Positions 12,509 through 42,050 of a stretch of 45,748 bases of DNA are shown here, piece after piece; position 1 is the stretch's first letter, and each line of letters begins with the position of its first letter. The stretch comes from a virus, in IMG/VR virus record IMGVR_UViG_3300045988_020540; one strand, written 5' to 3'. The notes under the pieces are model-generated. The model was not told where the DNA came from, did no database searches, and saw only the letters and a program-made list of their open reading frames with translations. Both the position numbers and the translations under genes were made by a program.

Positions 12509-14176
12509 TTAAATCCTTCTGTCCATAATCTCAACCGTATTTCCGATTAACCCTCTCAGTTCATTTTCAAGCAATGCAAGGGAATCTGGTGCGTCATCGT
12601 GCGGTACTTTACCAGATCGGGTATAAGTAGTCACCTGCTTCAAGAAAGCTGCATACTGGCTATTCCTTGCGTACAGTGACGGGTCTTTGAAGTAGAACTT
12701 CTTCAAGATGTTGTCCGATGCGAACTCAATACGGGTCTGCTTGTTACTGATCGTCTGCTTCGTTCGGATATTGCACACATACTTCCTGTCAGTTAAAATC
12801 TGCTGCACGTCACGGGCAAAATACTTACCTGCATTGTTCGACTCAAAGGTACTGGCTACCACTTTGTTGTCAATGAGTGCTTTCGCACATTCTGGTTTGG
12901 TTACTTCCGGTACAGAATCGTCAAAGACTACATCTACGATGTAGACCTCACTTCCGTACACCGCAGCAATCGGCATAGCACAGAAGTCATCTCCGGTGTC
13001 CGCAGTATCACAGACAGCAATGATACTGTCAGGATCACGGTCAATCGGCAGTTCAAAGTAGCGGTTAAGACTCTTCTCCGGGAAAAGGATTCCTTTTGCT
13101 TCAAACGGCTGCTGCTGAAATTCGGACTCAAACTGTTCCTCAGAAAGCATCTCACGCTGATCCCTAAAATACTGAGTGGTGAAAACCTTTCTACCCTCAC
13201 GCATATACTCAAAGTTACTTTCATCTGTCACCGGATCAAGAGCAGGTGTCTCAATAATCTTGCATCGTTTTCCCTGTTTCTGCATCTCTTCCTGCAAATG
13301 ACCGATAGGATCATACAGAGAGTATCGTGTACCGCAGATGACAATAGGTGTACCCTCAATAGCACGTCCGATGATATCACCAGAGATGACCTCCCACTTA
13401 TCATCAAGTCTCTGACGGTTCTTCGCTTCCTCACGTCCTTCTACACAGTCATCGAGGTACAGAAGGTTAGTTGCTTCGGAAAGACCTACCTGACGGGCAT
13501 CAATGGATCGGCACATAACGGTAGGGAATCGGGACTTGTGCAGAAGGTTGATAATCTTCGTATCGGCATTGGTCTGGACAAGTTTGCTCTCCGGGAAAAT
13601 ATCATAAAAATGATAGTCACTGGGAAGAGTCAGATATTCCAGACAACCAAGATAGAACGATTTAACAAGGTCATCACCTGTACCTTCCATAAGCGTTGCT
13701 CTGTCTGGGTACTTACCGGAAAGCATATTCGTAAAATTGATACCTAACTGGGACTTCCCGGCTCTCTTCGGCATGGAGATGGATAGGAAGTCCAGTTTCC
13801 CGTCAAGAATCTCCTGATATGCGTCTACATATCTTCGCAGATAGTGACGGCGGGGCTGATAGAATTTCTTATCAAGCGGCTTGCCGTACTCTACCGCTTG
13901 TAAGTAATCATCGAAGAAATGCTGTGCCCCGAAAAGAAGTGACCTGAACATCAGATCATCAAACTCTCTGGCTTCGTCAAATTTCTGACAGCTTACCGTC
14001 ATCCGCAGTCCCCATGAGATATGATTACGCAGTTCATGATTCCATGCGTGTGCGGTTTGGAAGTCAATCTTCTCATACTCCCGGCAGACTGCAAACATTT
14101 CTTCGTATGCAGACCTATCAAGCGGATTCCTTTCTATAGCTTCATAAATCTTTTGTTTCAATTTCAAATAATTCAT
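12509..14176 (-). CDS. terL: Terminase large subunit
   Basis: About 555 aa. An ATPase region (MPKRAGKS; LYLDDCVEG) is followed by a nuclease-like C-terminal half. I prefer the start at 14176 (MNYLKLKQ) because of the GGAGG RBS at 14182..14190. The track ORF extends to 14254, into a terminator. Confidence 0.85.
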   Translation of the reverse strand: MNYLKLKQKIYEAIERNPLDRSAYEEMFAVCREYEKIDFQTAHAWNHELRNHISWGLRMTVSCQKFDEAREFDDLMFRSLLFGAQHFFDDYLQAVEYGKPLDKKFYQPRRHYLRRYVDAYQEILDGKLDFLSISMPKRAGKSQLGINFTNMLSGKYPDRATLMEGTGDDLVKSFYLGCLEYLTLPSDYHFYDIFPESKLVQTNADTKIINLLHKSRFPTVMCRSIDARQVGLSEATNLLYLDDCVEGREEAKNRQRLDDKWEVISGDIIGRAIEGTPIVICGTRYSLYDPIGHLQEEMQKQGKRCKIIETPALDPVTDESNFEYMREGRKVFTTQYFRDQREMLSEEQFESEFQQQPFEAKGILFPEKSLNRYFELPIDRDPDSIIAVCDTADTGDDFCAMPIAAVYGSEVYIVDVVFDDSVPEVTKPECAKALIDNKVVASTFESNNAGKYFARDVQQILTDRKYVCNIRTKQTISNKQTRIEFASDNILKKFYFKDPSLYARNSQYAAFLKQVTTYTRSGKVPHDDAPDSLALLENELRGLIGNTVEIMDRRI

Positions 14177-14190
14177 AATAACCTCCTGAG

Positions 14191-14223
14191 AATAAAAAAA
14201 AGGACTGTCAAAACGACAGTCCC
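14191..14223 (-). terminator. Intrinsic terminator immediately upstream of the terL RBS
   Basis: The minus strand reads GGACTGTC-GTTTT-GACAGTCC followed by eight T. A second hairpin, GCTGTAG-GGATG-CTACAGC, lies just upstream. Confidence 0.7.
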
Positions 14224-14262
14224 ATTGGACAAGCTGTAGCATCCCTACAGCCAAGTATTCAG

Positions 14263-14490
14263 TTAATCAATAAGCGGCAATCCGTTGTTATCCTTTAATC
14301 GTCCTCTCATGATTTTGATAATATCAAGCAGCCATCCTATAAACAGGAAGTTGAAGGTGAACATTGCAAGCAGACCTCTCATGAATCTTCCCACATAGAA
14401 ATAGTGACCTCCGAACACTCCTGTAAAAATACAGAGTAATAACGCAGTCCTTTTCTTCTTATGACTGCTCAGATAAACACCTGTAGCCAT
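14263..14490 (-). CDS. TM2 domain-containing small membrane protein
   Basis: 75 aa with two hydrophobic helices and the pattern GVFGGHYFYVGR...GWLLD typical of the TM2 domain. Confidence 0.6.
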   Translation of the reverse strand: MATGVYLSSHKKKRTALLLCIFTGVFGGHYFYVGRFMRGLLAMFTFNFLFIGWLLDIIKIMRGRLKDNNGLPLID

Positions 14491-14502
14491 ACTTGATCCT
14501 CC

Positions 14503-14652
14503 TTATAAGTTTGCTAAAATTCTGAATGGTAATCTAAACATCCATAGGATAGGCATGATTATTACATAGTACACGATCTTCATAGATACCCAGAACATCA
14601 GTCGGAAGCATAACCACATGAAATAGCAAATGCCCCATAGTAAATATAGCAT
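14503..14652 (-). CDS. Small hydrophobic protein (49 aa), not in the ORF track
   Basis: My translation is MLYLLWGICYFMWLCFRLMFWVSMKIVYYVIIMPILWMFRLPFRILANL. The ATG lies 2 nt after the upstream stop, and the ORF ends just before the RBS of the TM2 gene. Confidence 0.4.
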   Translation of the reverse strand: MLYLLWGICYFMWLCFRLMFWVSMKIVYYVIIMPILWMFRLPFRILANL

Positions 14653-14654
14653 AC

Positions 14655-14891
14655 CTATCCCTCACTTTCACCATCCAAAATCATCTCTTCATCTTCTGAC
14701 TGTATAATGATCTGAAACTCCATTGCATCAGCCCACTTTATGAGCGTTTCTACAGTCATACCCATACCATCATTTCTCAGGAGAGTCTTACCGATACTGC
14801 CTTGACCGGAATAACCAAGTTCCTCAGCCAGTTTCCGTTGACTCCATCCTCTTTTAGAAAGCATGGTTTTTACACAATCTTTCACGGTCAT
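14655..14891 (-). CDS. XRE-family helix-turn-helix DNA-binding protein
   Basis: 78 aa. WSQRKLAEELGYSGQGSIGKTL is an HTH signature. The architecture is paralogous to 15050..15268. Confidence 0.75.
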   Translation of the reverse strand: MTVKDCVKTMLSKRGWSQRKLAEELGYSGQGSIGKTLLRNDGMGMTVETLIKWADAMEFQIIIQSEDEEMILDGESEG

Positions 14892-14918
14892 AGCCGTCAG
14901 CCCTCCTTAATCAGACTT

Positions 14919-14956
14919 ATTGGCGTATGCCTATCATGATAGACGTATGTCTATTA
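14919..14956. promoter_or_regulatory. Two adjacent operator-like palindromes (sites A and B)
   Basis: Site A is attGGCgtatGCCtat. Site B is atAGACgtatGTCTat at 14938..14956. Site B overlaps a minus-strand TATAAT at 14953..14958, upstream of gene 14655..14891. Confidence 0.55.
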
Positions 14957-15008
14957 TACTCCCTAACTTTTTATAGTATAGCCCTATCTAAGAGAAGTTA
15001 TAGCACTT

Positions 15009-15049
15009 GATAGACGTATGTCTATTTTTAATAGGCGTATGCCTATCAT
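15009..15049. promoter_or_regulatory. Two operator-like palindromes (sites C and D), in mirror order relative to sites A and B
   Basis: Site C is gATAGACgtatGTCTATt at 15009..15027. Site D is ATAGGCgtatGCCTAT at 15031..15049. Site D abuts the stop of gene 15050..15268. Confidence 0.55.
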
Positions 15050-15268
15050 TTATTCTGAAATCTCAAATGTCTCACCAGTCGAATTGTCTGTAACAGTCAA
15101 TGAACAATCCATCACCTTCAAGAAACGGATCAGCATGGAGATTTTCATATCACGATTAAGAGCCTGACTTACACCAGATTGGCTTTTCATCTCCATCTTC
15201 TCTCTCATTTCAGTCTGAGTGATTTCCTTCTGTGCCATGAGATTTTTAATTACTTCGTTAGCCTGCAT
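15050..15268 (-). CDS. Small HTH DNA-binding protein, candidate repressor of the divergent cassette
   Basis: ITQTEMREKMEMKSQSGVSQAL looks like an HTH. I prefer the start at 15268 (MQANEV) because of the GGAGG RBS at 15276..15280. It is divergent from the plus-strand operon. Confidence 0.65.
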   Translation of the reverse strand: MQANEVIKNLMAQKEITQTEMREKMEMKSQSGVSQALNRDMKISMLIRFLKVMDCSLTVTDNSTGETFEISE

Positions 15269-15280
15269 TGTGCTACCTCC

Positions 15281-15321
15281 TTTCATGCTTACATGATATT
15301 ATGATTTTATGATATTGTCAA
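15281..15321 (-). promoter_or_regulatory. Promoter of the HTH gene, with overlapping operator O1
   Basis: The minus strand reads TTGACA (15321..15316), a 17 nt spacer, then TATCAT (15298..15293). The palindrome tttcatg-ctta-catgata (15281..15298) covers the -10 element. Confidence 0.55.
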
Positions 15322-15443
15322 GACCTTTTTAATTTTTGCGGAACTTTCGCACCTCACCCGCCCCGGCTGTCGGGGGTCTATTTCCCCCTCCGGGGGTATG
15401 CTGTCCCGGTGCTGCTGTCCTGTCACCAGATCACAAAAAAAAA

Positions 15444-15508
15444 TATCATGTAATCATGATAAAATGCTTGACAATATCATGCATATATGATATCATGTAA
15501 ACATGATA
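15444..15508 (+). promoter_or_regulatory. Promoter of the plus-strand cassette, with operators O2 and O3
   Basis: TTGACA at 15468..15473, a 17 nt spacer, then TATCAT at 15491..15496. TATCATG-N4-CATGATA palindromes lie at 15444..15461 and 15491..15508; the second covers the -10. The same 13-mer, CTTGACAATATCAT, is used by the divergent promoter. Confidence 0.55.
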
Positions 15509-15624
15509 AAGAGATAGCAACGACAACTAAATAATTATAGGTTGTCAATGCTGCTGTATAGCAGGCAAGCCGCCCGGTGTACAGATTGCACAAATTGATA
15601 ATTGAATATAGGAGGTCAAGTATT

Positions 15625-16002
15625 ATGTATGATTACAGAGAAGCAATGACAGAGGATGTAAAAGAATGGATCAAAGAAAACATTGATTTGACAGAGTGGA
15701 CAGAGGACAGAGAAGGACTTGAGCAACAGTTAAATGATGATCTTTGGACAGAGGACAGCATAACAGGAAATGCAAGCGGTTCTTATTATTGTAACTCTTA
15801 CAATGCAGAGGAAAGCATAGCTCACAACTGGGATTTACTCAACGAAGCCCTTGACAAGTTCGGACAGAACGACATAAACGTTATCAAAAAGGGTGCTGAG
15901 TGGGCAGATGTAACAATTCGTTGTTACCTTCTGGGGTCTGTAATATCCGATGTATTAAACGAGATGGAAGAAAACGGGGACTTTGACGAGTCCGACAACT
16001 AG
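15625..16002 (+). CDS. Acidic hypothetical protein (125 aa), first gene of the cassette
   Basis: ATG at 15625 is preceded by ataggaggtc. The track ORF starts earlier, at 15577, without an RBS. I recognise no motif. Confidence 0.6.
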   Translation: MYDYREAMTEDVKEWIKENIDLTEWTEDREGLEQQLNDDLWTEDSITGNASGSYYCNSYNAEESIAHNWDLLNEALDKFGQNDINVIKKGAEWADVTIRCYLLGSVISDVLNEMEENGDFDESDN

Positions 16003-16104
16003 CACACGTTGCGGCGTGTATAAATAGCCAGTCAAGCCGCAAGCGTCCCGGCTCTGCCGGGGGTCTGGAAACAGAACACAATAGAATATAGGAGGTCTTA
16101 TATT

Positions 16105-16449
16105 ATGAGAGAATACAGCTTTAGAAAAGATGGTTTTACTTTTGAGAGAGTCAGCAAGGCAACAGCCCGCCGGGTATTTAATAACAATATGCCTATTATG
16201 TTATGCCCTTGCAATTTAAGACCAGAAATAGGGTTATTTAGTACAGTAGTACAGAACGGGAAATATTTAGACACAACGTTTGAAACCCTATTAAATACGT
16301 TTGAATATTACAACTGTACAACCAACGAAACGGGACGTTATACAGCGTTTTATATCCCGGTGACAGAGGTTGACCGCTTTACAGGTGAAACACCAACGGC
16401 GGCAACTCTGGGAACTGTAAAACAATATGATTATAACTTTATAAACTAG
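16105..16449 (+). CDS. Hypothetical protein (114 aa)
   Basis: The RBS context (gaatataggaggtc...tattATG) is nearly identical to that of the preceding gene. Confidence 0.6.
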   Translation: MREYSFRKDGFTFERVSKATARRVFNNNMPIMLCPCNLRPEIGLFSTVVQNGKYLDTTFETLLNTFEYYNCTTNETGRYTAFYIPVTEVDRFTGETPTAATLGTVKQYDYNFIN

Positions 16450-16558
16450 CCACAAGCCCCGGCAACAGTCCGGGGCATTGGTTTATAATGCAGCCGTAGG
16501 CGGTCACAAGCCCGCATAAATGCAGAGTGTAAACCAATATAGAAAAGGACGTGATAGC

Positions 16559-17287
16559 ATGAAAAGAGTCTGGAAAACACCAGAACTTGATTATTATAAC
16601 CTTTATGCCGATATGCTACAACAGCCCCATTTATTAATTGCAGGGGCTACGGGCAGCGGTAAAAGCGTTGTAATAAATGGCATGATGACAACAGCACTAA
16701 AGGACAGCCCCGCCGCTGTACAGTTTATATTGATCGACCCTAAACGGGTTGAACTGGTGGACTATAAAGAACTGCCCCACACACTGCGTTATAGCAGTGA
16801 ACCGGGGGAAATGGTACAGGCATTACAGGAAGCTATAACAATAACTGATAACAGGTATAGAGATATGGCACGGCAGCACGTCAAGAAATACGGCGGCGGT
16901 GCTGTGTATGTAGTTATTGATGAATTAGCGGATTTGATGACAACGAACAAAAAGCAAGTACAGCCGATATTACAGCGGCTCTGTCAGATCGGCAGGGCGG
17001 CAAACGTCCACGTTGTAGCCGCTACACAGTGCCCGTTGTCTGCTGTGATCCCTACACCTATAAAAGTAAACTTTGATAGCCGTGTAGCCCTCAGAACACG
17101 CAGCGGACAGGACAGTAGAAACATTTTAGGCGTGACAGGTTGCGAACTGCTACCCCGGTACGGTCAAGGCTACTACATGACCCCGGAGGGATGCCGACTG
17201 TATAATATCCCGATGTATGAAACAGAAACCCCGGACATAATAGAATATTGGAGGAAACAGAAACCCCGGATTGTATGGAATGGATAG
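16559..17287 (+). CDS. FtsK/SpoIIIE-family ATPase, motor core only, with no membrane or gamma domain
   Basis: Walker A is LLIAGATGSGKSV. LIDPKRVEL and Walker B YVVIDELADLM are followed by HVVAATQCP and a DSRNILG motif, all in the order seen in FtsK_SpoIIIE domains. I prefer the start at 16559 (MKRVWK). Confidence 0.85.
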   Translation: MKRVWKTPELDYYNLYADMLQQPHLLIAGATGSGKSVVINGMMTTALKDSPAAVQFILIDPKRVELVDYKELPHTLRYSSEPGEMVQALQEAITITDNRYRDMARQHVKKYGGGAVYVVIDELADLMTTNKKQVQPILQRLCQIGRAANVHVVAATQCPLSAVIPTPIKVNFDSRVALRTRSGQDSRNILGVTGCELLPRYGQGYYMTPEGCRLYNIPMYETETPDIIEYWRKQKPRIVWNG

Positions 17288-17294
17288 AACGCCC

Positions 17295-17320
17295 GCCCCA
17301 TATGATCCGGGGCTTTCTTT
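17295..17320 (+). terminator. Weak intrinsic terminator after the FtsK-like gene
   Basis: gcccc-atatgatcc-ggggc followed by tttcttta, 8 nt after the TAG stop. Confidence 0.4.
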
Positions 17321-17386
17321 ATACCCTCAGAACGCACACACGTCCCGGCAGCAGGTCTTTCCTACACCGGGGCGTATTTCATTGCC

Positions 17387-18040
17387 TTATTTAATTTTAG
17401 GGCTTTCTGCCCTTTCTGCGACTTCTGAGATTTCACTTTCTGGCACGTCTACAATATCGGCATTATCAAGATATTTCCTTGCAAGGGCTTCTGTGTCGGC
17501 ACTGTCACCTAACGGATTGTTAGGAGTCAGAACCATTTCTGTCTGATCCTTCATACCGTCATAGTTCTTCTGCCAGAATATGCCAGTAACCGGATTGACC
17601 TTGCCATCCTGCATAAGTCCTTCCCTGTAAAGGGCACAGACTTTCTGCACCTTTTTGATAAAGTCGGTGCGGGCGGGGTTCGTTGTACAACGGTTGACCC
17701 ACTCCCATGCAATACCCTTATCTATTCCTATCGCAGCATACGCAGCCTGATTCCCTATCTTCATATCGTATTTTGCACACGTTTCCAGATAGTGCATGAA
17801 CCGTCTTTCCATCTCTTCTATGTCGTTATAGTTCAACTTCTCAGACGGCATGATCTCCATAGTGAACTGAATCATCCGGGAGTTATACCCTTCTGGCAGA
17901 TCAGGATTGTGACCCTGTACAATCGGGCTATTCTCTCTTGCTTTTTCCAAGTTCGCAGGGCTACTCTTCTGATACCCTGCTGTCCTTCTGGGCTTTCTGT
18001 CCTTCCCTCTCGTTCTGGGCTTCTTCTGTTCTTCTGCCAT
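17387..18040 (-). CDS. terS: Terminase small subunit (putative)
   Basis: 217 aa. GIFWQKNYDGMKDQTE resembles the conserved (A/G)IF-LKN-G-KD box near the C-terminus of many Firmicutes TerS proteins. The N-terminus is basic. It is the first gene after the replication block. Confidence 0.6.
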   Translation of the reverse strand: MAEEQKKPRTRGKDRKPRRTAGYQKSSPANLEKARENSPIVQGHNPDLPEGYNSRMIQFTMEIMPSEKLNYNDIEEMERRFMHYLETCAKYDMKIGNQAAYAAIGIDKGIAWEWVNRCTTNPARTDFIKKVQKVCALYREGLMQDGKVNPVTGIFWQKNYDGMKDQTEMVLTPNNPLGDSADTEALARKYLDNADIVDVPESEISEVAERAESPKIK

Positions 18041-18128: not shown

Positions 18129-18231
18129 GTAGGGCTTGTAGGGTATTTTCGATTTTCGGTATAACTTTTCTTAGTAGGCGGTCTACTAGAGAAAGTTATA
18201 GCAAAATGATGAAATACCCTACATACCCTAC
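18129..18231. repeat. 103 bp nested imperfect palindrome between the primase-helicase gene and terS
   Basis: The outer arms, 18129..18148 (gtagggcttgtagggtattt) and 18212..18231, match at 18 of 20 positions. The inner arms, 18161..18177 (ataacttttcttagtag) and 18183..18199, match at 16 of 17 positions around the centre gcggt. Confidence 0.85.
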
Positions 18232-18233
18232 AA

Positions 18234-19715
18234 TTAACCTGTCGTTTTCATCATAATTCCGTAGTAAACAGCCACGCCACCACTCACGGACTTCTGCTCA
18301 TACCACTCAGGGTGTACCATCAACTCAGCATTGAACTTCTTCATGCTGCATACATAATAGCCGTTGCTCTTGCACCACAGCTTGTAATTATCATAAAGGG
18401 TCTTTGCTCTTGTCTTAACGTCATCCTGCTTCTGGCATTTCTCTTCAAGGTACTGCAATACCAGATCATTGTCTTTCTCATACTGCTTGACTACCTTCTG
18501 CATATTTGCTGACATTTTTAGACCAAACCTTCTGTACTTGAAGTACCCGGCAACCAACCATGTGAAGATACCACGCATTGCTTCCGGTGACTCAAAGTAG
18601 TCCTTCAAGCCTTTGTCCTGTTCGTCATCATTGAAGTGCCTGTTAAATTCAATAACACGCACACGATCAGAAGCAAACAAGGATTTATCTTTTACAGCAG
18701 GTAGGTCATTACAGGACAGCCACATTGTAAACTGCGGCTTGAAGGTAATTGCTGTCTGATACAACTCACGGGCGGTGATTTCTTCACCACCAGTAAGCTG
18801 CTTGATGACTGATTCATCCAACTTCCCGGCGGTGTCTGACTCACTCATAGTAACCATTCGCTTACCTTTCAGCTTTGCCAGTACCGGGCTTGCTGCTTCT
18901 GCGTTCTTTGCTCTGTCACCACGGCAGATCAGTTCTACAGGTGTGACAGTAGAGTAATCACCAAGCAAGTGCTGAATTGCATCAAGCATGGTGGACTTTC
19001 CGTTTCTGGTGGTCTTACCATGCAGGATAAACATACACTCTTCCTTAGATGTTCCAAGGATGGAGTAACCCAAGGCACGTTGCAGGTAGTCCGCTTTGTC
19101 TTTGTCGTTCTGCGTTACTTCCTTGATAAACTGTTCCCATCTGGCACACTTCTCTTTCTTCACACCGTATTCAAAATTGGTCTGCATTGTTAAGAAGTCA
19201 TCCCATTTATGCTCACGGAATGTCAATGATTCCAGATCATAAGTACCATTCTTACAGTTAATCAGGAATGGGTGCGTATCAAACTCTGCTGCTGCAATCT
19301 TCAAGTTATCGGCTGCGTCCTTCATGAGCCTGTCACGGAAACGCCTGTCACCCATCTTACCGACAAAAGCCATGTACTGCTTACGCTTATCTTCGTCCGG
19401 GATTTCTCCGCAGTAGAGTGCCATGATCCTGACAAACTCTTTGATCTTATTAGACACAAGCAATGATCCTACATCTTTCTGCCACTTACCGCCATCATAG
19501 GTGTACCATGACTTTGCTTCCGGACAGTACCGGGTGTCATGATCGTAACACTCTGAGAAAAGGTCAGCCATTCCCGCTTCATCCCAAGAGTACCCTGTAG
19601 AATCTTCCTGATAGGAAGTCTCAGGGTGATGTTCTTTGATGTATGTCAGCTTTTCTGAAATCTCTACCGATGTTACATAGCGTCCGTTAGACAACTGAAA
19701 TAATTCATCTTCCAT
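18234..19715 (-). CDS. P4-family / D5-like primase-helicase (SF3 NTPase)
   Basis: 493 aa. Walker A ILHGKTTRNGKST and the downstream layout are typical of the phage/plasmid primase P4-family C-terminal domain. Confidence 0.75.
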   Translation of the reverse strand: MEDELFQLSNGRYVTSVEISEKLTYIKEHHPETSYQEDSTGYSWDEAGMADLFSECYDHDTRYCPEAKSWYTYDGGKWQKDVGSLLVSNKIKEFVRIMALYCGEIPDEDKRKQYMAFVGKMGDRRFRDRLMKDAADNLKIAAAEFDTHPFLINCKNGTYDLESLTFREHKWDDFLTMQTNFEYGVKKEKCARWEQFIKEVTQNDKDKADYLQRALGYSILGTSKEECMFILHGKTTRNGKSTMLDAIQHLLGDYSTVTPVELICRGDRAKNAEAASPVLAKLKGKRMVTMSESDTAGKLDESVIKQLTGGEEITARELYQTAITFKPQFTMWLSCNDLPAVKDKSLFASDRVRVIEFNRHFNDDEQDKGLKDYFESPEAMRGIFTWLVAGYFKYRRFGLKMSANMQKVVKQYEKDNDLVLQYLEEKCQKQDDVKTRAKTLYDNYKLWCKSNGYYVCSMKKFNAELMVHPEWYEQKSVSGGVAVYYGIMMKTTG

Positions 19716-21808: not shown

Positions 21809-23935
21809 TTACATTGACTTTCTCTCAGCAATCTCAGCCATTTTTGCAGCGTTCAGACGGGTATCACCGTGAACTCTACTGTAGGACAGATAGCCATTCA
21901 TTCTGTCAATCTTCGTGAGGTTGGTACTGCCACACACCGGGCACACATCCATCTCTAACTCTTCATGACCGCAATCATCACAGTATGCCAGAGACAGGTT
22001 GACTCCTTCGTAATAGCCTAACTCCATGGCTCTGCACACCAGAGTCTTGACGGCGTTCCGGTTGTAGCTGATCGGATATCTCACATACTGAATCTTGCCA
22101 CCGTTGCAGAGATTCCAGAAACGTCCTTCCAAGTCTTGCTTCTGAATCGGTGTGATATCTTCTGTGACGTGACAGTGAAAGCTATTGCTTACATACGGTC
22201 TGTCAGACACATTCTTAATCACTCCATACTTCTTTCTGAACTGCTCCACCTGCAAACCACAAAGGCTCTCAGCAGGTGTGCCGTAGATTGCATAGAGCCA
22301 TCCGTCAGCTTCCTTGTACTCATTGACCTTATCGTTGATGTGCTGCATGACTTCCAGTGCAAATGCACCATCTTCCGCAATGGACTTTCCATTGTAAAGT
22401 TCCTGCAACTCATTGAGTGCTGTGATTCCGAAAGATGCCGTCATAGGTTTGAGAAGTGATTTAATCTTGTCCGAAGGTTTCAGACGCCCTCCGTAGAAAC
22501 CACCTTCACAATAGGCAATCGGGTTGGTACTGGCTTTCATCTCTCCAAGGTATTCATAAGTACGCTTGTGAATATTGCGGATCATTTCAAGGTAGAAGTC
22601 CAAAACCTCATAGAAGTCCTTACCCTCTTCTCTTGCTTTCGCAAGAATCATAGGCAGATGCAGACTCACTGCACCAATATTGAAACGTCCTTCAAAGATA
22701 GGCTTATCATCTTCGTCTGCCGGGTGCATACCGCCACGCTCATACCACGGACTAAGGAAAGCACGGCAACCCATAGGGCTTACCACTCTGCCATATTTCT
22801 TGTACATCTCAGCCACATAACCGTCACCTGTAAGAGACAGCCAGTCAGGGTACATAGTCTTGCAGCTACAGTCAATCCCGGCTTCAAATACATCTTCGTT
22901 GATACAGCCTTCACCGTGAAGATTCTTGTCATACAGGAATACCAGTTTAGGGAAAAGGACTGGCTTCTTATTTCCCTGCTTACCCTCACCTGTCATGTGA
23001 ACACGCAAGAAAGTCTTGCTTGCCATTTTACCGAAACGATCCGTAGCCAGACCGAAGGTCATAGTGATAAATGGATAGTCACCACGGGATGATCCCACAG
23101 TGTTCAGCTTCATTTCAATTCCTTGAAATCCCTGTTCAAAATCTCTTTCTACCTTCTGCATAGCCCATTCATGAACTTCCTGCGTGAAGGTCTGCTGATT
23201 GCGAATTTCCATGTATTCATCCACATACTTCTTATAAGATTTCTCAGCGTAAGGTGCTGCCAACTTGTCAACTTCCGGTACTGTAAATCCTCCGTACTGC
23301 TGACTTGCGGTTGCGAGGATGATATCACCCAGTACATCAAAGAACACATCAAGCGTTTTCGGTTCGTTGTACCAGATATTCCCCATCTCAAAGCCACCCT
23401 TCATAACCTCATTGACTCTGAACAGGCAACAGTTCATAGTGTCCAGTCTTGCGGACTGATCGTGAATGTAAATGTAACCGTCCCGGCAAGCCTGCAACTC
23501 TTCCTGAGTCATGAAGAACTTACGGTACAGACGCTTATTCAGTTCGTTGAAGATCAAGCAACGCTTTGTAGCCACCAGTGCTGAGTCCGTGTTTGCGTTC
23601 TCTTTATCTCCCTGAAATCTAACAACCTGCGATTTCTGGAATACCCTGTCTAACACATGAACAAAGTCCTGCTTATAGTTTCTGTAGTTACGATAGGATG
23701 TAGCAATCCGTGGATCGTACTTATCAAGTACCTGTTCCACAATATTGTGCATCACGGCAACCGGGATATCAGTAAGTCCTTTTTCTTCGATCACTTCCAG
23801 TACCGAACCAACGATTTCATGAAATGCTGTATCATCCAGTGTAATCATGACTCTGGAAGCAGACTTGTTGACAGCGTTTACGATCTTTTCACCGTCAAAC
23901 TCTTCCAGTGTTCCGTCTTTCTTAATTACTTTCAT
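21809..23935 (-). CDS. nrdD: Anaerobic ribonucleoside-triphosphate reductase
   Basis: N-terminal ATP-cone (MKVIKKDGTLEEFDGEKI), a C-terminal Zn site (CDDCGHE...CPVCGS) and a glycyl-radical motif (RMNGYLS). I prefer the start at 23935 because of the AAAGGAG RBS. Confidence 0.9.
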   Translation of the reverse strand: MKVIKKDGTLEEFDGEKIVNAVNKSASRVMITLDDTAFHEIVGSVLEVIEEKGLTDIPVAVMHNIVEQVLDKYDPRIATSYRNYRNYKQDFVHVLDRVFQKSQVVRFQGDKENANTDSALVATKRCLIFNELNKRLYRKFFMTQEELQACRDGYIYIHDQSARLDTMNCCLFRVNEVMKGGFEMGNIWYNEPKTLDVFFDVLGDIILATASQQYGGFTVPEVDKLAAPYAEKSYKKYVDEYMEIRNQQTFTQEVHEWAMQKVERDFEQGFQGIEMKLNTVGSSRGDYPFITMTFGLATDRFGKMASKTFLRVHMTGEGKQGNKKPVLFPKLVFLYDKNLHGEGCINEDVFEAGIDCSCKTMYPDWLSLTGDGYVAEMYKKYGRVVSPMGCRAFLSPWYERGGMHPADEDDKPIFEGRFNIGAVSLHLPMILAKAREEGKDFYEVLDFYLEMIRNIHKRTYEYLGEMKASTNPIAYCEGGFYGGRLKPSDKIKSLLKPMTASFGITALNELQELYNGKSIAEDGAFALEVMQHINDKVNEYKEADGWLYAIYGTPAESLCGLQVEQFRKKYGVIKNVSDRPYVSNSFHCHVTEDITPIQKQDLEGRFWNLCNGGKIQYVRYPISYNRNAVKTLVCRAMELGYYEGVNLSLAYCDDCGHEELEMDVCPVCGSTNLTKIDRMNGYLSYSRVHGDTRLNAAKMAEIAERKSM

Positions 23936-24428
23936 GTAAGACCACTTCTCCTTTCTGTAATGATTTTTGTACGTCAATCACTCTCTGATTGGTACTGCCC
24001 GCCCAGTGATAATTGACATCCTTCAACTCTTCTTCAAAGCGTCCATCCACCAGTACGTCTGCATACTTGACTGCTGCAAGCAGATATTTGTTTGCAAGAA
24101 TCTGTTCCCATGTATACCCGGTGTAGACCCATATTGTTTTCTTCGGAAATCTCTTCTGTACTGCTTTCATGATGGAGAATACTGCTCCACGGTTCTGCGG
24201 GTGAAGCGGATCACCCCCGGAGAAAGTAATACCTGCCACATACGGTTTTTCCAGTGCTTTCATGATTTCATTAAAAGCTCTCTTATCAAACACCAAACCG
24301 TCATCAGGATTCCATGTAACCGGATTCTGACAGCCCTTGCAGTGATGTTCACATCCTGCAACCCAGAGCACTACCCGGAGTCCGTCACCGTTATTCATGT
24401 CATCCTGAGTAATGTTGTGATATCGCAT
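23922..24428 (-). CDS. nrdG: Anaerobic RNR activating enzyme (radical SAM)
   Basis: 168 aa with the CEHHCKGC (CxxxCxxC) cluster, directly upstream of nrdD. Confidence 0.85.
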   Translation of the reverse strand: MRYHNITQDDMNNGDGLRVVLWVAGCEHHCKGCQNPVTWNPDDGLVFDKRAFNEIMKALEKPYVAGITFSGGDPLHPQNRGAVFSIMKAVQKRFPKKTIWVYTGYTWEQILANKYLLAAVKYADVLVDGRFEEELKDVNYHWAGSTNQRVIDVQKSLQKGEVVLHESN

Positions 24429-35375: not shown

Positions 35376-35525
35376 TTAATTCCTCCATTCATAATCTTTG
35401 TGGTACTTTGCCTTGTACCATTCTTCAAACTCTTTCTTGTGTTCCGTTGACTGGAAGTAGTCTTTGACTCTCTCAATCAACTGGGAACACAAAGCACTTT
35501 CTTCCATCGTAGGAACTGCCATCAT
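35376..35525 (-). CDS. Small protein (49 aa) between cro-like gene and DGR target 2, not in the ORF track
   Basis: My translation is MMAVPTMEESALCSQLIERVKDYFQSTEHKKEFEEWYKAKYHKDYEWRN. The ATG overlaps the upstream TGA, and an AAGGAG RBS is present. Confidence 0.45.
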   Translation of the reverse strand: MMAVPTMEESALCSQLIERVKDYFQSTEHKKEFEEWYKAKYHKDYEWRN

Positions 35526-35746
35526 CACTCCTTAACAAGAACAGAACCTTCTTCGTACTTATCAAGAATGTCGTGAGACAATTCGATGATTGCATCTGCT
35601 TTGCTTCCGCTTCGTGACCCGGCAAGCACGGAACTCATTTCCGTCTTATCCGTAACGATTCCTCTAAGACCTAACTGATTGATAAGCCACACCTGAGTCA
35701 ACTGGTGCTTTTTGAGTCGGCTACGAATGTCCTCACGTTCTGCCAT
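35525..35746 (-). CDS. Cro-like small HTH regulator, first gene of the early operon
   Basis: LTQVWLINQLGLRGIVTDKTEMSSVLAG looks like an HTH. I prefer the start at 35746 (MAEREDI) because of the AAAGGAGG RBS. It is divergent from the cI-like gene. Confidence 0.6.
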   Translation of the reverse strand: MAEREDIRSRLKKHQLTQVWLINQLGLRGIVTDKTEMSSVLAGSRSGSKADAIIELSHDILDKYEEGSVLVKE

Positions 35747-35787
35747 GTCGTGTACCTCCTTTCGTTGATTTTGCTTATCAACTAAAG

Positions 35788-35816
35788 TTGACAAAATACT
35801 CTTCAAAGGTTATAAT
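35788..35816 (+). promoter_or_regulatory. Consensus sigma-70-type promoter pointing toward the cI-like gene
   Basis: TTGACA at 35788..35793, exactly 17 nt, then TATAAT at 35811..35816. Confidence 0.55.
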
Positions 35817-35926
35817 ATGGGTGTCGAACCAATATAACCATTGAAAACCGTCAGGGGTAAAATTAAATCCCCGGAGGGCTTGTTTTCTTTACCCTATTTT
35901 GTAAACAACTCTTGTTGACAAGACCT

Positions 35927-35955
35927 ATAATAATCCCTATCTAGGAATTTGTCAA
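35927..35955 (-). promoter_or_regulatory. Strong promoter pointing toward the cro-like gene and early operon
   Basis: The minus strand reads TTGACA (35955..35950), a 17 nt spacer, then TATTAT (35932..35927). Confidence 0.5.
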
Positions 35956-36007
35956 GCGGTTTTAGGAAAATTTTTAAATTTTATTCCCTAGTTAGGAGGA
36001 TTTAGGA

Positions 36008-36376
36008 ATGAATAATGATTTATTACTAAAACGCATTGATGAATTATGCACCGAAAAAGGAGTAAAGAAAACAACTGCTTTCACTGAAAGTCACGTTGGT
36101 AAGAACTTCGCCAGTAACCTGAAAACCTCTAACCCTAGCCAAAAGAACCTTGCTTTATTGGCTCAGTATTTTGATTGTACTGTTGATTACCTCTTAGGTA
36201 ATTCCGATGACCGGGGAACTGTAACAATCCCTATTCAGGAATCTATTCAGCTTTCTGAGGAAGAACGTATTTTGATTTCCGCATTTAGGAGTGCTTCTAT
36301 AGAAGGACGCATGAGAATTATCCAAGTCTGTATGAATGAAAAGGATGCAAAAGGGGAAACTATCATTGCAGGATAA
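36008..36376 (+). CDS. cI-like XRE-family repressor
   Basis: 122 aa. An N-terminal HTH region (KKTTAFTESHVGKNFASNLK ... LALLAQYFDCTVDYLLG) is followed by a short C-terminal domain. It lies directly upstream of the integrase. Confidence 0.7.
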   Translation: MNNDLLLKRIDELCTEKGVKKTTAFTESHVGKNFASNLKTSNPSQKNLALLAQYFDCTVDYLLGNSDDRGTVTIPIQESIQLSEEERILISAFRSASIEGRMRIIQVCMNEKDAKGETIIAG

Positions 36377-36403
36377 TAAGCATTGAAGAATGGAGGAAGA
36401 ACC

Positions 36404-37987
36404 ATGTACGAAGAGATTAAGACTGCCTGTCTATATCTGCGATATTCAAGCAGCAACCAAACTGAACAGTCCATAGAAGGTCAGATGCACGTCTGCCAAG
36501 ATTTCTGCAAGAGACACAATATCAGAATTGTAGAGATGTACATAGATCGTGCCACCTCTGCCAGTAAGGACATAGAGAAAAGAGTAGAGTTCTTGAAGAT
36601 GATTAAGGACTCAGAAAAGGGGAACTTTGATGCAGTCATCGTCTATAAACTTGACCGCTTTGCCCGATCCCGGTATGACTCAGCTACTTACAAGTACCGT
36701 CTGAAAAGAAACGGTGTACAGCTTGTCTCTGCCACTGAGAACATCACCCAAGACCCGGAAGGAATCATTCTTGAATCCGTTCTTGAAGGTATGGCAGAGT
36801 TCTATAGTGCGGAACTCTCACAGAAAATCAATCGTGGTATGAGGGAGTCAGCTATGAAGCATAACTCCATCGGTGGGGCTATCCCTCTGGGGTACAAGAC
36901 CGTGGATAAGAAACTGATAGTTGATGAAACCACTGCACCTATCGTCCGGGAAGCATTTCAGATGTATGCAGACGGTGAGTCCGTAGCTGAGATATGCAGG
37001 ACATTCAATAACCGTGGGTACAAGACCTCAAAGGGAACACGCTTCGGGAAAAGCAGCTTCACCAAGATTTTCCGTAATGAGAAATACATCGGAGTCTATA
37101 AGTACCATGACTACCGGGCAGAAGATGTTATCCCACCGATCATAGATAAAGCCCTCTGGGACAGAGTGCAAGTGAGAATCGGTAAGATAAAGAAAGCCCC
37201 TGCCCGAAACAAGGCAAGGCATACTTACCTTCTGACAGGGAAACTATTCTGCGGACACTGCGGCAGTGCCATGAACGCTGACGGCAACTCTAACGGCTAT
37301 CTATACTACAGATGTTACGGTAAAAAGAATCTGGATAAACAATGTAATAAGCGGAACATGGAAAAGAACTTGATTGAAAGACTGGTTGCACAGGACGCAA
37401 TGTCATTCCTAACCGATGAATATATTGAGAAGATTGCTACTATTGCCTGTGACCGGAACAGACAAGAGATTGAGAGTGATTCACCCATCCCTGTGATCCG
37501 TGACCGGATTAGACAGGTTGACGTGTCTTTGAACAATCTGCTGAAAGCTATCGAAACTGGGTCTGCCCCGGATATGCTTGTAAAGCGTATGGGAGAACTT
37601 GAAACTGAGAAGAAAGATATGGAAGTGCAGCTTAAAAAGGAAATGGCACACCAAGTCTATATTGATAAAGAGCAGGTAATCTTCTGGTTAGAGAAGTTCC
37701 GTGAAGGGGATATCAATGACGAAGAGTTCTGTCAGACCGTGATTGATCTGTTCGTAAATTCTGTGACTGTATGGGATGAACCGGACAATAAGTTCAGGAT
37801 CACCATAGCCTATAATCTCACCTCTATACCGCAAAAAACCTACCGCCTGTCGAAAGACGGTAGGTTATCGGATTACGCTTCCAATACTCCACCATTGAGT
37901 GCAAATCCAATGATCTCAGGAAGCCTTATGATTCATACCTTTACAGTCACCGTACACCCGCAGAAACGGGGAAGGAAAACCCTGTAA
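36404..37987 (+). CDS. Large serine recombinase (integrase)
   Basis: The N-terminal resolvase domain has CLYLRYSSSNQ (catalytic Ser region) and VIVYKLDRFARS. A recombinase domain follows, then a zinc ribbon (CGHCGSAM...YYRCYGK) and a coiled-coil C-terminus. I prefer the start at 36404 with its GGAGG RBS. Confidence 0.9.
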   Translation: MYEEIKTACLYLRYSSSNQTEQSIEGQMHVCQDFCKRHNIRIVEMYIDRATSASKDIEKRVEFLKMIKDSEKGNFDAVIVYKLDRFARSRYDSATYKYRLKRNGVQLVSATENITQDPEGIILESVLEGMAEFYSAELSQKINRGMRESAMKHNSIGGAIPLGYKTVDKKLIVDETTAPIVREAFQMYADGESVAEICRTFNNRGYKTSKGTRFGKSSFTKIFRNEKYIGVYKYHDYRAEDVIPPIIDKALWDRVQVRIGKIKKAPARNKARHTYLLTGKLFCGHCGSAMNADGNSNGYLYYRCYGKKNLDKQCNKRNMEKNLIERLVAQDAMSFLTDEYIEKIATIACDRNRQEIESDSPIPVIRDRIRQVDVSLNNLLKAIETGSAPDMLVKRMGELETEKKDMEVQLKKEMAHQVYIDKEQVIFWLEKFREGDINDEEFCQTVIDLFVNSVTVWDEPDNKFRITIAYNLTSIPQKTYRLSKDGRLSDYASNTPPLSANPMISGSLMIHTFTVTVHPQKRGRKTL

Positions 37988-40021: not shown

Positions 40022-40199
40022 GATCCTGTACCTCCTGTTCGTCATCTTCCTGCTCCATCTCGATATCTGTCATCATAGCCAGATATTCAATGTCACTGTT
40101 CGCCTTTGCGATCTGTGCCTGCATTGCAGCGTTCTTCTGACGCTCTTTTACAAGCTGTTCTCTTGCACTGATAAATCCAAACATTTGCTTTCCCTCCAT
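40005..40199 (-). CDS. Small acidic coiled-coil protein
   Basis: 64 aa ORF overlapping the 3' end of the RT ORF. An alternative start MFGFISA lies 5 codons in. Confidence 0.4.
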   Translation of the reverse strand: MEGKQMFGFISAREQLVKERQKNAAMQAQIAKANSDIEYLAMMTDIEMEQEDDEQEVQDHGEEE

Positions 40200-41281
40200 A
40201 AATTCTTATAATATTGATCCATACAGATAATGAGGTTGTGACAATTTCTCCTTGCCCTCCTACCCGGAGATTTCCTTTTCTTGCTACTCTCATTACCTAC
40301 ATGGGCTTTCCAACTCTCATAACACCTGTCAACCTCTTCCTTCGTCATGTACCCTTGCTTTGCCCTTTCTACCAACTTCCGCAGCTTTCGCCGTTCGTGT
40401 GATAACTTCTCTGGCAGTAATGTCATGACTACCTTTCCGGTCTTTACCAACCGGAAGCGGAAACCTAGAAACTTGATACCCTGAGTCACCTTGAAAAGCT
40501 GTGTTTTCTTCGGACTCAATCTCAAACCTCTTGCGGTCATCCAAGCATCTATCTTTATCAAACACTCCTGTAAATAAGCCTTGTCCTCATGGATGATAAT
40601 GAAATCATCGTTGTACCGGACATAGTGCTTAATATGAAGTTGCTCTTTTATAAAATGGTCGAAGTCATCTAAGACTGCTAACTGTATAAGCTGTGTCGTT
40701 TCTGAACCAAGACCCATACCTACCTCTGGATCATCACCCTGATTGAAGCTGTCAATGATCCGCTTAATTTCTCCGTTCACCCATTCATCCGTGACTCTCT
40801 TCGTTACCGCTGAATAAGCCAGTTCATGAGAGGTGCTACCGAAGAAATTCTTCAAGTCTGCTTTGAGTACCCACCCTTCCGTACCGTGTTTCCGGTAATA
40901 CTTTTGTAGGTGGCAGATCAGCCTTTTCCTTGCGAACTCTGTTCCTCTTCCGTCCTGACAAGCACAGTTATCATAGATAAATGATTTTGTCATGGTATCG
41001 TAAAAGTAGTTGTCGCATAGGCTTCTCTGAAATACTCTGTCCTTGATTCTTGTACTTACAATGTCTCTTTCTTTTGGCTCATACACTTTGAACTGTGTAT
41101 AAGCATCTAACTTATATGTACCATTCTCCACGCTCTCCTTTAGCTTATGAACATTAACCAAACCATTCTTTACATACCCGGCTACACTGTCTTTCCACAT
41201 GACGTTGTTCTTGCAATGCTGCATAGCCCGGTACAGATTATCAAAGTCACAGACTTCATCTCTCACTTCGGATTCCATCAT
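40148..41281 (-). CDS. DGR-type reverse transcriptase
   Basis: 377 aa with RT motifs. The YxDD box appears as VRYNDDFIII. LGSETTQL sits in the position of the DGR-specific [I/L]GxxxSQ motif. The gene is directly downstream of the TR. Confidence 0.85.
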   Translation of the reverse strand: MMESEVRDEVCDFDNLYRAMQHCKNNVMWKDSVAGYVKNGLVNVHKLKESVENGTYKLDAYTQFKVYEPKERDIVSTRIKDRVFQRSLCDNYFYDTMTKSFIYDNCACQDGRGTEFARKRLICHLQKYYRKHGTEGWVLKADLKNFFGSTSHELAYSAVTKRVTDEWVNGEIKRIIDSFNQGDDPEVGMGLGSETTQLIQLAVLDDFDHFIKEQLHIKHYVRYNDDFIIIHEDKAYLQECLIKIDAWMTARGLRLSPKKTQLFKVTQGIKFLGFRFRLVKTGKVVMTLLPEKLSHERRKLRKLVERAKQGYMTKEEVDRCYESWKAHVGNESSKKRKSPGRRARRNCHNLIICMDQYYKNLWRESKCLDLSVQENSL

Positions 41282-41552
41282 GTATATTTCTCCCGTAAAT
41301 CATTGGTTGCCGTTTATAGTGATACTGCCGTAAGGACGGCAATCACATCAGCACTCCGTTTTCGCCCTACTATATTCAGGTCAGGGTGACGATTCCTTGT
41401 GTGAGTGCATTGATTTCAGCCTATGCCTACTTTATTACTAGCGTTTCTCACAATCCGGGGCAACCCCATTGCTGTTGTTCGCATTGTTGTTGTTCAGATT
41501 ACCCGTATTGTTCACATTGCGAACGTTGTTACTGTTCCCGGCGTTCGGGGTA
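41282..41552 (-). ncRNA. Predicted DGR RNA: template repeat plus 168 nt spacer upstream of the RT
   Basis: A non-coding stretch lies between the TR 3' end (41450) and the RT start (41281). It contains a perfect hairpin, TGCCGT-CCTT-ACGGCA on the transcribed (minus) strand, at 41326..41341. Confidence 0.5.
41450..41552 (-). other. DGR template repeat (TR)
   Basis: In the frame of the targets the coding strand reads TPNAGNSNNVRNVNNTGNLNNNNANNSNGVAPDC, with 15 AAY codons. It has 35 adenines on the coding strand. It is not part of any plausible ORF. Confidence 0.9.
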
Positions 41553-41586
41553 AACACATATCTTACAATCGTCAACCTTATATCAT

Positions 41587-42006
41587 TTACTTGTATCTAT
41601 TTTCATCAGACCTCTTCCAGTTCCGAAGAAGATTCTGGACATTGATTACAAGTCCTGTCCAGTAGTCCATCTTAGAACCTTCGATTCCGAAAGTACGGTA
41701 AGCAATATCCATCATGGTTAGCAAGGAATATGTCTATGCCAAAGCCTGAACTTGATATCCTCTCCGTAATTCCCAGTCGGCTTTCCAATGTTCAGACTCA
41801 GGATTCACATACACTGAATTTGCCATATTGATAAGTCGGCTGATTTCTACCGCAGCATCTACGATCTTTGCGGTGATGCACCAACGGTATCTCTTCGGGA
41901 AGCAACTCTCATTACTGCAAATATGGATAGTATGTGTAGCCAACTCATTTGCCTTTGTGATTACTTCCAACTTTGAAGTACCTCTCTTTGACTTCGGTAC
42001 TGACAT
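41587..42006 (-). pseudogene. avd: avd (accessory variability determinant, four-helix-bundle type) interrupted by an in-frame TAG at 41734..41736
   Basis: The N-terminal part (42006..41737, MSVPKSKRG...YQVQALA) and the 42 aa ORF 41715..41587 (MMDIAYRTFGIEGSKMDYWTGLVINVQNLLRNWKRSDENRYK) are in the same frame. They are separated only by TAG plus 6 sense codons. The combined length of about 139 aa ends 35 nt before the TR. Confidence 0.65.
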
Positions 42007-42022
42007 TTTCCTCACTCCTTTC

Positions 42023-42040
42023 CCACCCCTAACGGGGTGG
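42023..42040 (-). promoter_or_regulatory. Hairpin 22 nt downstream of VR1 (candidate DGR target-recognition element)
   Basis: The minus strand reads CCACCCC-GTTA-GGGGTGG, a 7 bp GC-rich stem with a 4 nt loop. It lies between the target stop (42051) and the avd RBS. Confidence 0.65.
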
Positions 42041-42050
42041 ATTTCTGATC

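Follow-up and report, generated by a model that had tools for sequence, protein, structure and literature searches.

Single genes for FtsK/SpoIIIE-type ATPases occur as orphans in tailed phages (PHROG 1358 and 3551), and their carriers include the Bacillus siphoviruses gamma, W-beta, Cherry, Fah and BtCS33, Bastille-like myoviruses, and Mycobacterium cluster J phages. Self-cleaving ribozymes are a second feature linked to phages: in prophages, multiple ribozymes flank genes of changing identity, including the anti-restriction gene ardA, and are proposed to divide a long phage transcript into mRNAs of one gene each (PMC3088659; PMC6765202); the ribozymes that bracket such variable genes include clustered hammerheads (Perreault, 2011; PMC3088659). 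The pistol class was discovered with the help of genes that accompany twister and hammerhead ribozymes (PMC4604425; PMC10085705), and the cause of the association between bacterial ribozymes and phage genes is still described as unknown (PMC10085705; PMC4604425). Here, we analyzed a 45,748-nt stretch of viral DNA (IMG/VR record IMGVR_UViG_3300045988_020540; hereafter the window) and focused on the gap of 3.2 kb (positions 14,191 to 17,386) that separates the genes for its small and large terminase subunits, terS and terL. The locus joins the two known kinds, orphan phage FtsK-like genes and ribozyme-flanked prophage genes. We give a probability of about 0.5 to the reading that the gap is a lineage-fixed, separately regulated, bidirectional accessory or conflict operon with a ribozyme-cut transcript and a soluble DNA-translocase ATPase as its constant product.

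As in the orphan carriers, a single FtsK-type ATPase gene is present in a tailed phage. It differs from those genes in encoding a minimal protein of 242 amino acids that is confined to the beta domain, in lying antisense at a fixed place between terS and terL, in being repressor-controlled, and in standing behind ribozymes and swappable cargo. With the ribozyme-flanked prophage genes, the locus shares ribozymes that lie on one strand and bracket small genes that change between genomes; it departs from them in combining a pistol with a twister that lacks stem P3, in having an array of gene slots that always ends in one ATPase, and in its fixed position. A link between FtsK and self-cleaving ribozymes was not found in the literature searched, a scope that did not extend to the associated-gene list of Weinberg 2015.

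The split of the terminase genes had been described in an earlier note on this DNA, and all of the open reading frames (ORFs) listed there exist at its coordinates. Although the terS protein of the window has no direct family match in Pfam, PHROG or NCBIfam, and its profile none in the PDB, 5 of 12 aligned diverged members of its family match GP3_package (PF16677, small terminase; best E 3e-14), so that transitive homology upholds the call. Among 80 IMG/VR contigs retrieved via the ATPase (64-99% identity), the order is portal(-), terL(-), variable genes, FtsK(+), terS(-), D5 helicase(-) and primase(-) wherever flanks are available. Since this set is biased toward FtsK, the synteny test was repeated with contigs found by terL alone (72-100% terL identity), counting those with at least 5 kb upstream of terL. 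An antisense FtsK gene was located 1.7-3.8 kb from terL, with terS beyond it, in all 44 of these contigs, which indicates that the content of the gap is not an insertion in this clade. An identical arrangement was observed in prophages of cultured Oribacterium and Moryella and of other Lachnospiraceae. Identity to the window is 72-79% for the ATPase where it is 82-92% for terL and 52-73% for terS; the ATPase gene is about as conserved as the core genes and is under purifying selection.

Outside the clade, phages with a terL that is unrelated, undetectable or no more than 37% identical carry ATPase homologues at 57-65% identity, so that the FtsK module has moved between lineages. In front of these homologues, too, lie small ORFs, many of them acidic, together with a small divergent regulator. 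The module is thus mobile over long timescales and fixed within the clade. A lone FtsK-core homologue (60% identity) was also seen beside a recF-like gene on an apparently non-phage chromosome (Clostridiales metagenome-assembled genome RUG13544; locus L168, 5998-6732). The nearest outgroup found, MT835537 (MT835537.1; L174), has a terL of 66% and a capsid protein of 81% identity, and over its whole 37.7 kb it contains no FtsK homologue, no homologue of the window's terS and no shared replication genes. What this contig from a gut phage has in common with the window is confined to the virion module, from terL to the tail (27-81% identity), which illustrates that the gap is a seam between independently assorting genome halves. 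Specifically, the gap sits where an early module (replication plus terS) meets a terL-plus-structural module in a clade of temperate Lachnospiraceae phages. A comparison of GC and k-mer composition, which the earlier note had proposed for 15290-17330, gave a divided answer: GC content is normal, but no other 2-kb stretch of the window deviates as strongly in tetranucleotide usage (L1 distance 0.416 vs. 0.226 ± 0.046). The lysogeny module (35525-37987) is the sole plus-strand island besides the FtsK operon, and its tetranucleotide usage is ordinary, unlike that of the operon.

The ATPase aligns solely to the beta (RecA-core) domain of Pseudomonas aeruginosa FtsK, corresponding to residues 208-465 in construct 2IUU. 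The aligned domain starts after only about 15 residues, the C-terminus lies about 10 residues past the end of the alignment, and the first 207 residues of the construct are without counterpart. Three parts of cellular FtsK were tested for and not found: the alpha domain, which contributes to the hexamer ring, by alignment to the 2IUU construct; the gamma winged-helix domain, which recognizes FtsK-orienting polar sequences (KOPS) or SpoIIIE recognition sequences (SRS), among the protein's 14 Pfam matches (no FtsK_gamma); and a membrane anchor by hydropathy, where the highest Kyte-Doolittle value of any 19-residue window is 1.25 and no window reaches 1.6. For this reason the ATPase is not a full member of the cellular FtsK family. 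With FtsK and SpoIIIE, its best match both by sequence (E 6e-33) and by structure (E 2e-12), it has in common a RecA-like beta domain that contains both Walker motifs as well as the region of the sensor and the arginine finger, and it is without their N-terminal membrane domain, linker, alpha domain and KOPS/SRS-reading, XerD-activating gamma domain. The earlier description of an FtsK/SpoIIIE core with Walker A and B motifs, and with neither anchor nor gamma domain, is therefore confirmed by Pfam, alignment and hydropathy. The 80 ATPase sequences compared (62-99% identity) show no variation in Walker A, Walker B, ATQCP or DSRNIL.

An AlphaFold2 model of the ATPase was of medium confidence (predicted local distance difference test, pLDDT, 69; core >85). 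Its best Foldseek neighbor was the DNA-bound FtsK motor (E 2e-12; query TM-score, TMq, ~0.65), with 6T8G, 6T8B and 2IUS as top matches and type VII secretion ATPases (EssC) and TcpA ranking lower; a comparison with BFVD gave weak matches to A32-like packaging ATPases. Homologues of about 242 amino acids number in the thousands in gut metagenomes. Among phage records, 330 carry homologues at 26-44% identity, with no isolate phage above 44%, and plasmid homologues reach at most 38% and are mostly of the cellular FtsK type. Matches to MADS mad8 (4e-26) and SspH (9e-27) reflect the generic FtsK domain only, and no partner gene of the MADS or Ssp systems was found among the eight cassette proteins scanned with PADLOC, which otherwise returned weak helix-turn-helix (HTH) models only. 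The view of the earlier note that the locus fits no described system still stands, in that a standalone FtsK-core ATPase matches no described multi-gene system.

What the earlier note overlooked were two ribozymes, one in each intergenic spacer of the plus-strand operon, the pistol filling the spacer between the genes for the 125- and 114-amino acid proteins. The pistol has stems P1, P2 and P3 and the conserved core nucleotides of its class. Its cleavage is predicted at G16063/U16064 from the known G-U site of the family. The core nucleotides of the twister are intact and match the consensus, with predicted cleavage at U16486/A16487. Both folds are supported by covariation. For the pistol, 10 of 13 pairs showed compensatory changes and 98.6% were paired in 22 relatives, a score reached by none of 500 shuffles; for stems P1, P2 and P4 of the twister, compensatory changes were seen in 6 of 11 pairs, with 98.5% paired in 12 relatives vs. 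22-44% when partners were slid. Over both ribozymes, the slid-partner control left 22-57% of cells paired vs. ~98.5% for the true pairing. Custom covariance models built from the first examples were then searched against both strands of 66 sources (0.95 Mb) and returned 38 pistol and 18 twister hits. All 49 hits within 47 distinct loci lay on the FtsK strand between terL and FtsK, and at least one ribozyme was present in 36 of these loci, mostly at gene-module junctions. In relatives without a pistol or twister, no other ribozyme class was detected (nine loci at gathering threshold; L105 and L112 at E up to 1).

The intervals of the 47 distinct loci contain 133 ORF clusters, and the genes of the FtsK strand are arranged combinatorially. 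The first module is acid125, c5, c11 plus c9 or another, usually with a pistol or twister behind it; next comes a second module (unk114, c17, c18, c19, or others), after which a GC hairpin ending in a U-rich tail, in some loci joined by a twister, leads up to the ATPase gene, which is always last. The ribozymes thus mark the junctions of module exchange. Only the genes between FtsK and terL behave as exchangeable cargo, and that stretch is hypervariable. The 125-amino acid protein is acidic, as the earlier note had it; it, the 114-amino acid protein and the 49-residue peptide have no match in Pfam, PHROGs, NCBIfam or PADLOC. A relationship between acid125 and c5, an alternative slot-1 family, was rejected (profile-profile probability 0.3%), and PDB profile searches with both returned noise only. 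The AlphaFold2 model of the 125-amino acid protein (pLDDT 52.7, from a shallow alignment of sequences at least 92% identical) was not taken to a fold search.

On the minus strand, two Xre-type regulators and small membrane proteins form a moron-like unit. The earlier note had called the regulators paralogous; they belong to the same fold class, but paralogy is weak (18% identity, E 0.003). Its hydrophobic 49-residue peptide and TM2-domain protein were both recovered, by hydropathy and by Pfam, respectively, and TM2 was found in only 17 ORFs across the loci. Like phage morons, the unit is equipped with a promoter and a terminator of its own, codes for membrane proteins and differs from one relative to another; unlike them, the locus is bidirectional with dedicated regulators and its FtsK gene is invariable. 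The minus-strand cargo of relatives also holds other small membrane proteins. In a Pfam scan of ten alternative cargo families, the only matches were to Mrr_cat and, weakly, to Bro-N and bPH_2, all in minus-strand cargo. At the spot adjacent to terL, the cargo is replaced in relatives (L105, 6312-7262; L115, 7405-7938; L126, 6976-7704) by a small serine recombinase, by an Mrr-type restriction nuclease with a membrane anchor (Mrr_cat 3e-26) or by a Bro-N-like protein. This replacement cargo is defence-like or regulator-like.

The gap has its own promoters, operators and terminators, in keeping with the self-regulated unit first proposed. A strong putative sigma-70-type promoter with palindromic operators seems to drive the exchangeable small genes, in two slots, ahead of the ATPase gene. 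Operator-like TATCATG...CATGATA palindromes extend over 15283-15513, and both divergent promoters sit within this region; regulators and operators differ between otherwise similar phages. Between the promoters lies a GC-rich element that is conserved at 79-97% nucleotide identity in 40 of the 47 distinct relatives, where the genes on either side differ. It consists of tandem CCCCGG...CCGGGG and CCCCC...GGGGG hairpins behind a T-run, has no Rfam match and is without U-tracts after its hairpins on the minus strand; an insulator, a recombination anchor and a pac-related site are candidate functions. Downstream of slot 2, an equivalent of the GC hairpin with a U-rich tail is found ahead of the FtsK ribosome-binding site in most relatives. 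There are 12 terminator-like sites vs. 2.9 ± 2.0 in shuffles, and the strong terminator reported to close the minus-strand set is indeed there. The weak hairpin after FtsK was read by eye, as the terminator scan skips loops of more than 8 nt. At the left border (14177-14223), the minus-strand terminator stops about 10 nt ahead of the terL Shine-Dalgarno sequence and leaves no space for a promoter. Consequently, terL and the virion genes need read-through or antitermination, and a transcript reaching terL would first have to cross 3 kb antisense to the FtsK operon. All features are listed in Table 1.

Table 1. Features of the gap, its borders and the lysogeny module (positions are those of the window)
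Feature	Position	Strand	Evidence and remarks
terL, large terminase, left border	12509-14179	-	PHROG 38 6e-48; Pfam T7 terminase RNaseH-like domain 8e-6
Intrinsic terminator of minus-strand accessory unit	14201-14223	-	10-bp stem, T8 tail; directly 5' of terL ribosome-binding site
TM2-domain membrane protein, 75 amino acids, variable cargo	14263-14490	-	Pfam TM2 5e-13; hydrophobic
Hydrophobic peptide, 49 amino acids, variable cargo	14503-14652	-	Homologues at 27-100% identity in some relatives
Xre-type HTH regulator a, 78 amino acids	14655-14891	-	PHROG 4779/2339 (regulator/HTH) 3e-5; weak Pfam HTH_3
Operator set 1	14917-15047		Four copies of 19-nt palindromic unit (TGATAGACGTATGTCTATT and variants), between both HTH genes
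Xre-type HTH regulator b, 78 amino acids	15050-15286	-	PHROG 1373, PHROG 3 (regulator/repressor) ~2e-4; divergent from plus-strand operon
Sigma-70-like promoter, minus-strand unit	15293-15321	-	TTGACA, 17-nt spacer, TATCAT; 11/12 consensus positions
GC-rich element, ~70 nt	15332-15400		Between divergent promoters; conserved in relatives
Operator set 2, TATCATG-N-CATGATA repeats	15442-15513	+	Repeat scan; around plus-strand promoter
Sigma-70-like promoter, plus-strand operon	15468-15496	+	11/12 consensus positions, TG extension; back-to-back with minus-strand promoter
Slot-1 cargo, acidic 125-amino acid protein (acid125)	15625-16002	+	Isoelectric point (pI) 4.05; unrelated families instead in relatives
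Pistol ribozyme	16004-16068	+	RF02679, 61.1 bits (gathering threshold 34.5), E 8e-9
Slot-2 cargo, 114-amino acid protein (unk114)	16105-16449	+	Other families instead in relatives
GC hairpin, 7 GC pairs	16456-16476	+	Terminator scan; after slot 2
Minimal P3-less type-P1 twister ribozyme	16482-16533	+	RF03160, 57.5 bits, E 1e-11; 25 nt 5' of FtsK start
FtsK/SpoIIIE beta (RecA-core) ATPase, 242 amino acids	16559-17287	+	Pfam FtsK_SpoIIIE PF01580 5e-33; PHROG 1358 2e-57
Weak terminator-like hairpin after FtsK	17295-17323	+	GCCCC, 9-nt loop, GGGGC, then TTTCTTTATA; convergent with terS
terS, 217 amino acids, right border	17387-18040	-	Family members match Pfam GP3_package; convergent with FtsK throughout clade
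Cro-like gene	35525-35806		Lysogeny module; divergent
CI-like repressor	36008-36376	+	Lysogeny module
Serine integrase	36383-37987	+	Only integrase found in window

The window represents a temperate phage of gut Firmicutes with nearly all genes on the minus strand. Close relatives are integrated in the genomes of Oribacterium, Moryella indoligenes DSM 19659 and other Lachnospiraceae and Clostridia, and a nucleotide search with 7.9 kb against 50,697 phage records retrieved only three weak, unannotated gut contigs. The replication block comprises a helicase, a DNA polymerase, NrdD, a primase-polymerase and a D5-type helicase, followed leftward by the 217-amino acid terS candidate, the gap, and then terL, the portal and the virion genes. 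NrdD is a full-length anaerobic ribonucleotide reductase (21809-23977; PHROG 487, 7e-232). Upstream of terS on the minus strand, the repeat GTAGGGTATGTAGGGTAT and its inverted partner ATACCCTACAAGCCCTAC flank a region (18135-18240) in which a late-promoter regulator might bind or which might be related to pac. The right end of the window carries an endolysin and a reverse transcriptase of the diversity-generating retroelement type (PHROG 1423, 1e-86); the latter adjoins a 381-amino acid protein with a Hoc-like or decoration-type C-terminal region, and together (40148-43196) they probably constitute a diversity-generating retroelement aimed at a virion protein.

In the operation we propose for the conflict operon, the primary plus-strand transcript would be cut into single-gene mRNAs, the slot-1 mRNA keeping the pistol fold as a 3' cap and the FtsK mRNA beginning with a 5'-OH and the twister fold as its leader. 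Such cutting would agree with the function suggested for clustered hammerheads around variable prophage genes such as ardA (PMC3088659; PMC6765202). Each cistron, the ATPase above all, would be insulated from the cargo that recombination put upstream, and the conserved ribozymes and hairpins might double as homology for cassette exchange. Expression of the operon would not depend on the late cascade and would take place in the lysogen, immediately after entry, or at both times; the operon would serve phage-host or phage-phage conflict in the form of counter-defence or exclusion, with the ATPase acting as a ring-forming translocase of double-stranded DNA on cytoplasmic DNA and not as a part of the terminase. 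Expression outside the late cascade and a role in conflict are suggested by strand, promoter type and cargo. Comparable in design are anti-CRISPR/aca-type loci, in which a strong promoter drives small, hypervariable and often acidic proteins next to an HTH autoregulator, between conserved phage genes. We know of no constant ATPase and no ribozymes in loci of that type.

Several points weigh against this proposal. No small protein of the locus matches a known defence or anti-defence family in Pfam, PHROGs, NCBIfam, PADLOC or PDB profiles. The timing of expression, whether in the lysogen, early or late, is deduced from strand and promoter type only, and ribozyme cleavage is a prediction. The twister score of 57.5 bits is below the Rfam gathering threshold of 67.2, because stem P3 is absent. 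No ribozyme could be detected in 11 of the 47 loci, two of which were searched at a permissive threshold, so that ribozyme processing is not obligatory. Retention of the ATPase at 100% is unusual for a conflict gene, and a core role in DNA metabolism fits it equally well; convergence of FtsK with terS throughout the clade is compatible with a link to packaging. With no alpha domain, ring formation and DNA translocation by the ATPase are putative, and its biochemical role is the weakest step of the proposal.

Among the competing explanations, a core factor of DNA metabolism survives best, and we consider it unlikely. Here, a soluble FtsK-core ring would act on replicating or recombining phage DNA, for example in protein clearing, concatemer resolution or segregation, or branch migration, and the small genes upstream would be unrelated hitch-hikers. 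Such a role would agree with the retention of the ATPase in all 44 terL-selected relatives with invariant catalytic motifs, with an FtsK motor bound to double-stranded DNA as the nearest fold and sequence, and with a gene position next to the replication module. The FtsK/SpoIIIE ATPase of Bacillus phage Fah is, moreover, a delayed-early gene (PMC4113786). However, the ATPase gene of the window runs antisense to every replication gene, behind a repressor-controlled promoter of its own, its homologues occur in phages with unrelated replication and packaging genes or as a lone chromosomal gene, and MT835537 does without FtsK in the presence of similar virion genes.

Rather doubtful, as an extension of the conflict operon, is the idea that the slots and the ATPase make up one machine, in which a phage DNA translocase for counter-defence or exclusion would take its specificity, adaptor or cargo subunits from the exchangeable small proteins. 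The ribozymes would be natural insulator parts, much like the synthetic RiboJ, that let newly recombined cassettes work at once. If true, this would be the first defined biological role of bacterial self-cleaving ribozymes in phages.

We also doubt, and more strongly, that the ATPase is a packaging accessory that cooperates with the adjacent small terminase, for instance by feeding or clearing DNA at pac. Its location between terS and terL and its convergence with terS throughout the clade are what such a function would lead one to expect; homologues at 67-69% identity (L074, L075, L077) still adjoin terS-family genes of 25-30% identity, and FtsK/HerA-type ATPases are the packaging motors of other virus groups, to which the weak A32-like matches in BFVD may be related. 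Yet a complete terL is present, the ATPase gene is on the opposite strand behind a promoter of early or constitutive type, the homologues at 57-65% identity occur without a terS neighbor, and there is no co-variation with terL type (L078-L080).

Among other options, the earlier note had named a moron and the remnant of an inserted element; the corresponding reading is a recent mobile cassette, a moron or what is left of an integrative or conjugative element. Own promoters and terminators, deviant tetranucleotide usage and a module common to unrelated phages are in line with this, conjugative elements do use FtsK-like motors, and TcpA is among the structural neighbors. Nevertheless, site and orientation of the FtsK gene are universal in the clade, which largely refutes the reading there and makes it very improbable: related phages all carry the antisense ATPase gene at this site, as the 44 terL-selected relatives show, and variable presence among close relatives, the hallmark of a moron, is confined to the flanking cargo. 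No relaxase, integrase or mating-pore family was found among the eight cassette proteins scanned (Pfam, PHROG, NCBIfam), in agreement with the earlier remark that the cassette has no integrase. A conjugative origin was rejected on the plasmid matches, which do not exceed 38% and are mostly cellular FtsK, and a coupling protein of the TcpA/VirD4 type on the lack of a transmembrane anchor, of any relaxase or mating-pore match in these proteins, and on the weaker structural match to TcpA; the fold is nearer to FtsK than to TcpA or EssC.

To our knowledge, Oribacterium and similar host genera are not known spore-formers, which counts against the least probable reading of all, manipulation of sporulation or cell division by a SpoIIIE/FtsK mimic that would move DNA into forespores or perturb septation. 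The hosts are Clostridia, and the idea has been voiced for Bacillus cereus group phages, namely for the FtsK/SpoIIIE genes of gamma, W-beta, Cherry and phiCM3 (PMC4113786; PMC4464726), but the ATPase of the window lacks both the membrane anchor that would take it to the septum and the gamma domain that directional loading would call for, and a phage that integrates by a serine integrase does not need separate transport.

For annotation, the locus means that a split of terS and terL by an antisense operon can be a stable trait of a lineage and is not necessarily the sign of an insertion. Two loose ends of phage biology meet in it, the orphan FtsK/SpoIIIE-like ATPases, whose function has only been guessed, and the bacterial ribozymes linked to phages (PMC10085705). 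Cultured carriers are available in Moryella indoligenes DSM 19659 and an Oribacterium isolate. Since variants with and without ribozymes exist and the prophage resides in cultured strains, the role of the ribozymes, be it insulation, stability or cassette exchange, and the role of the ATPase are open to direct test.

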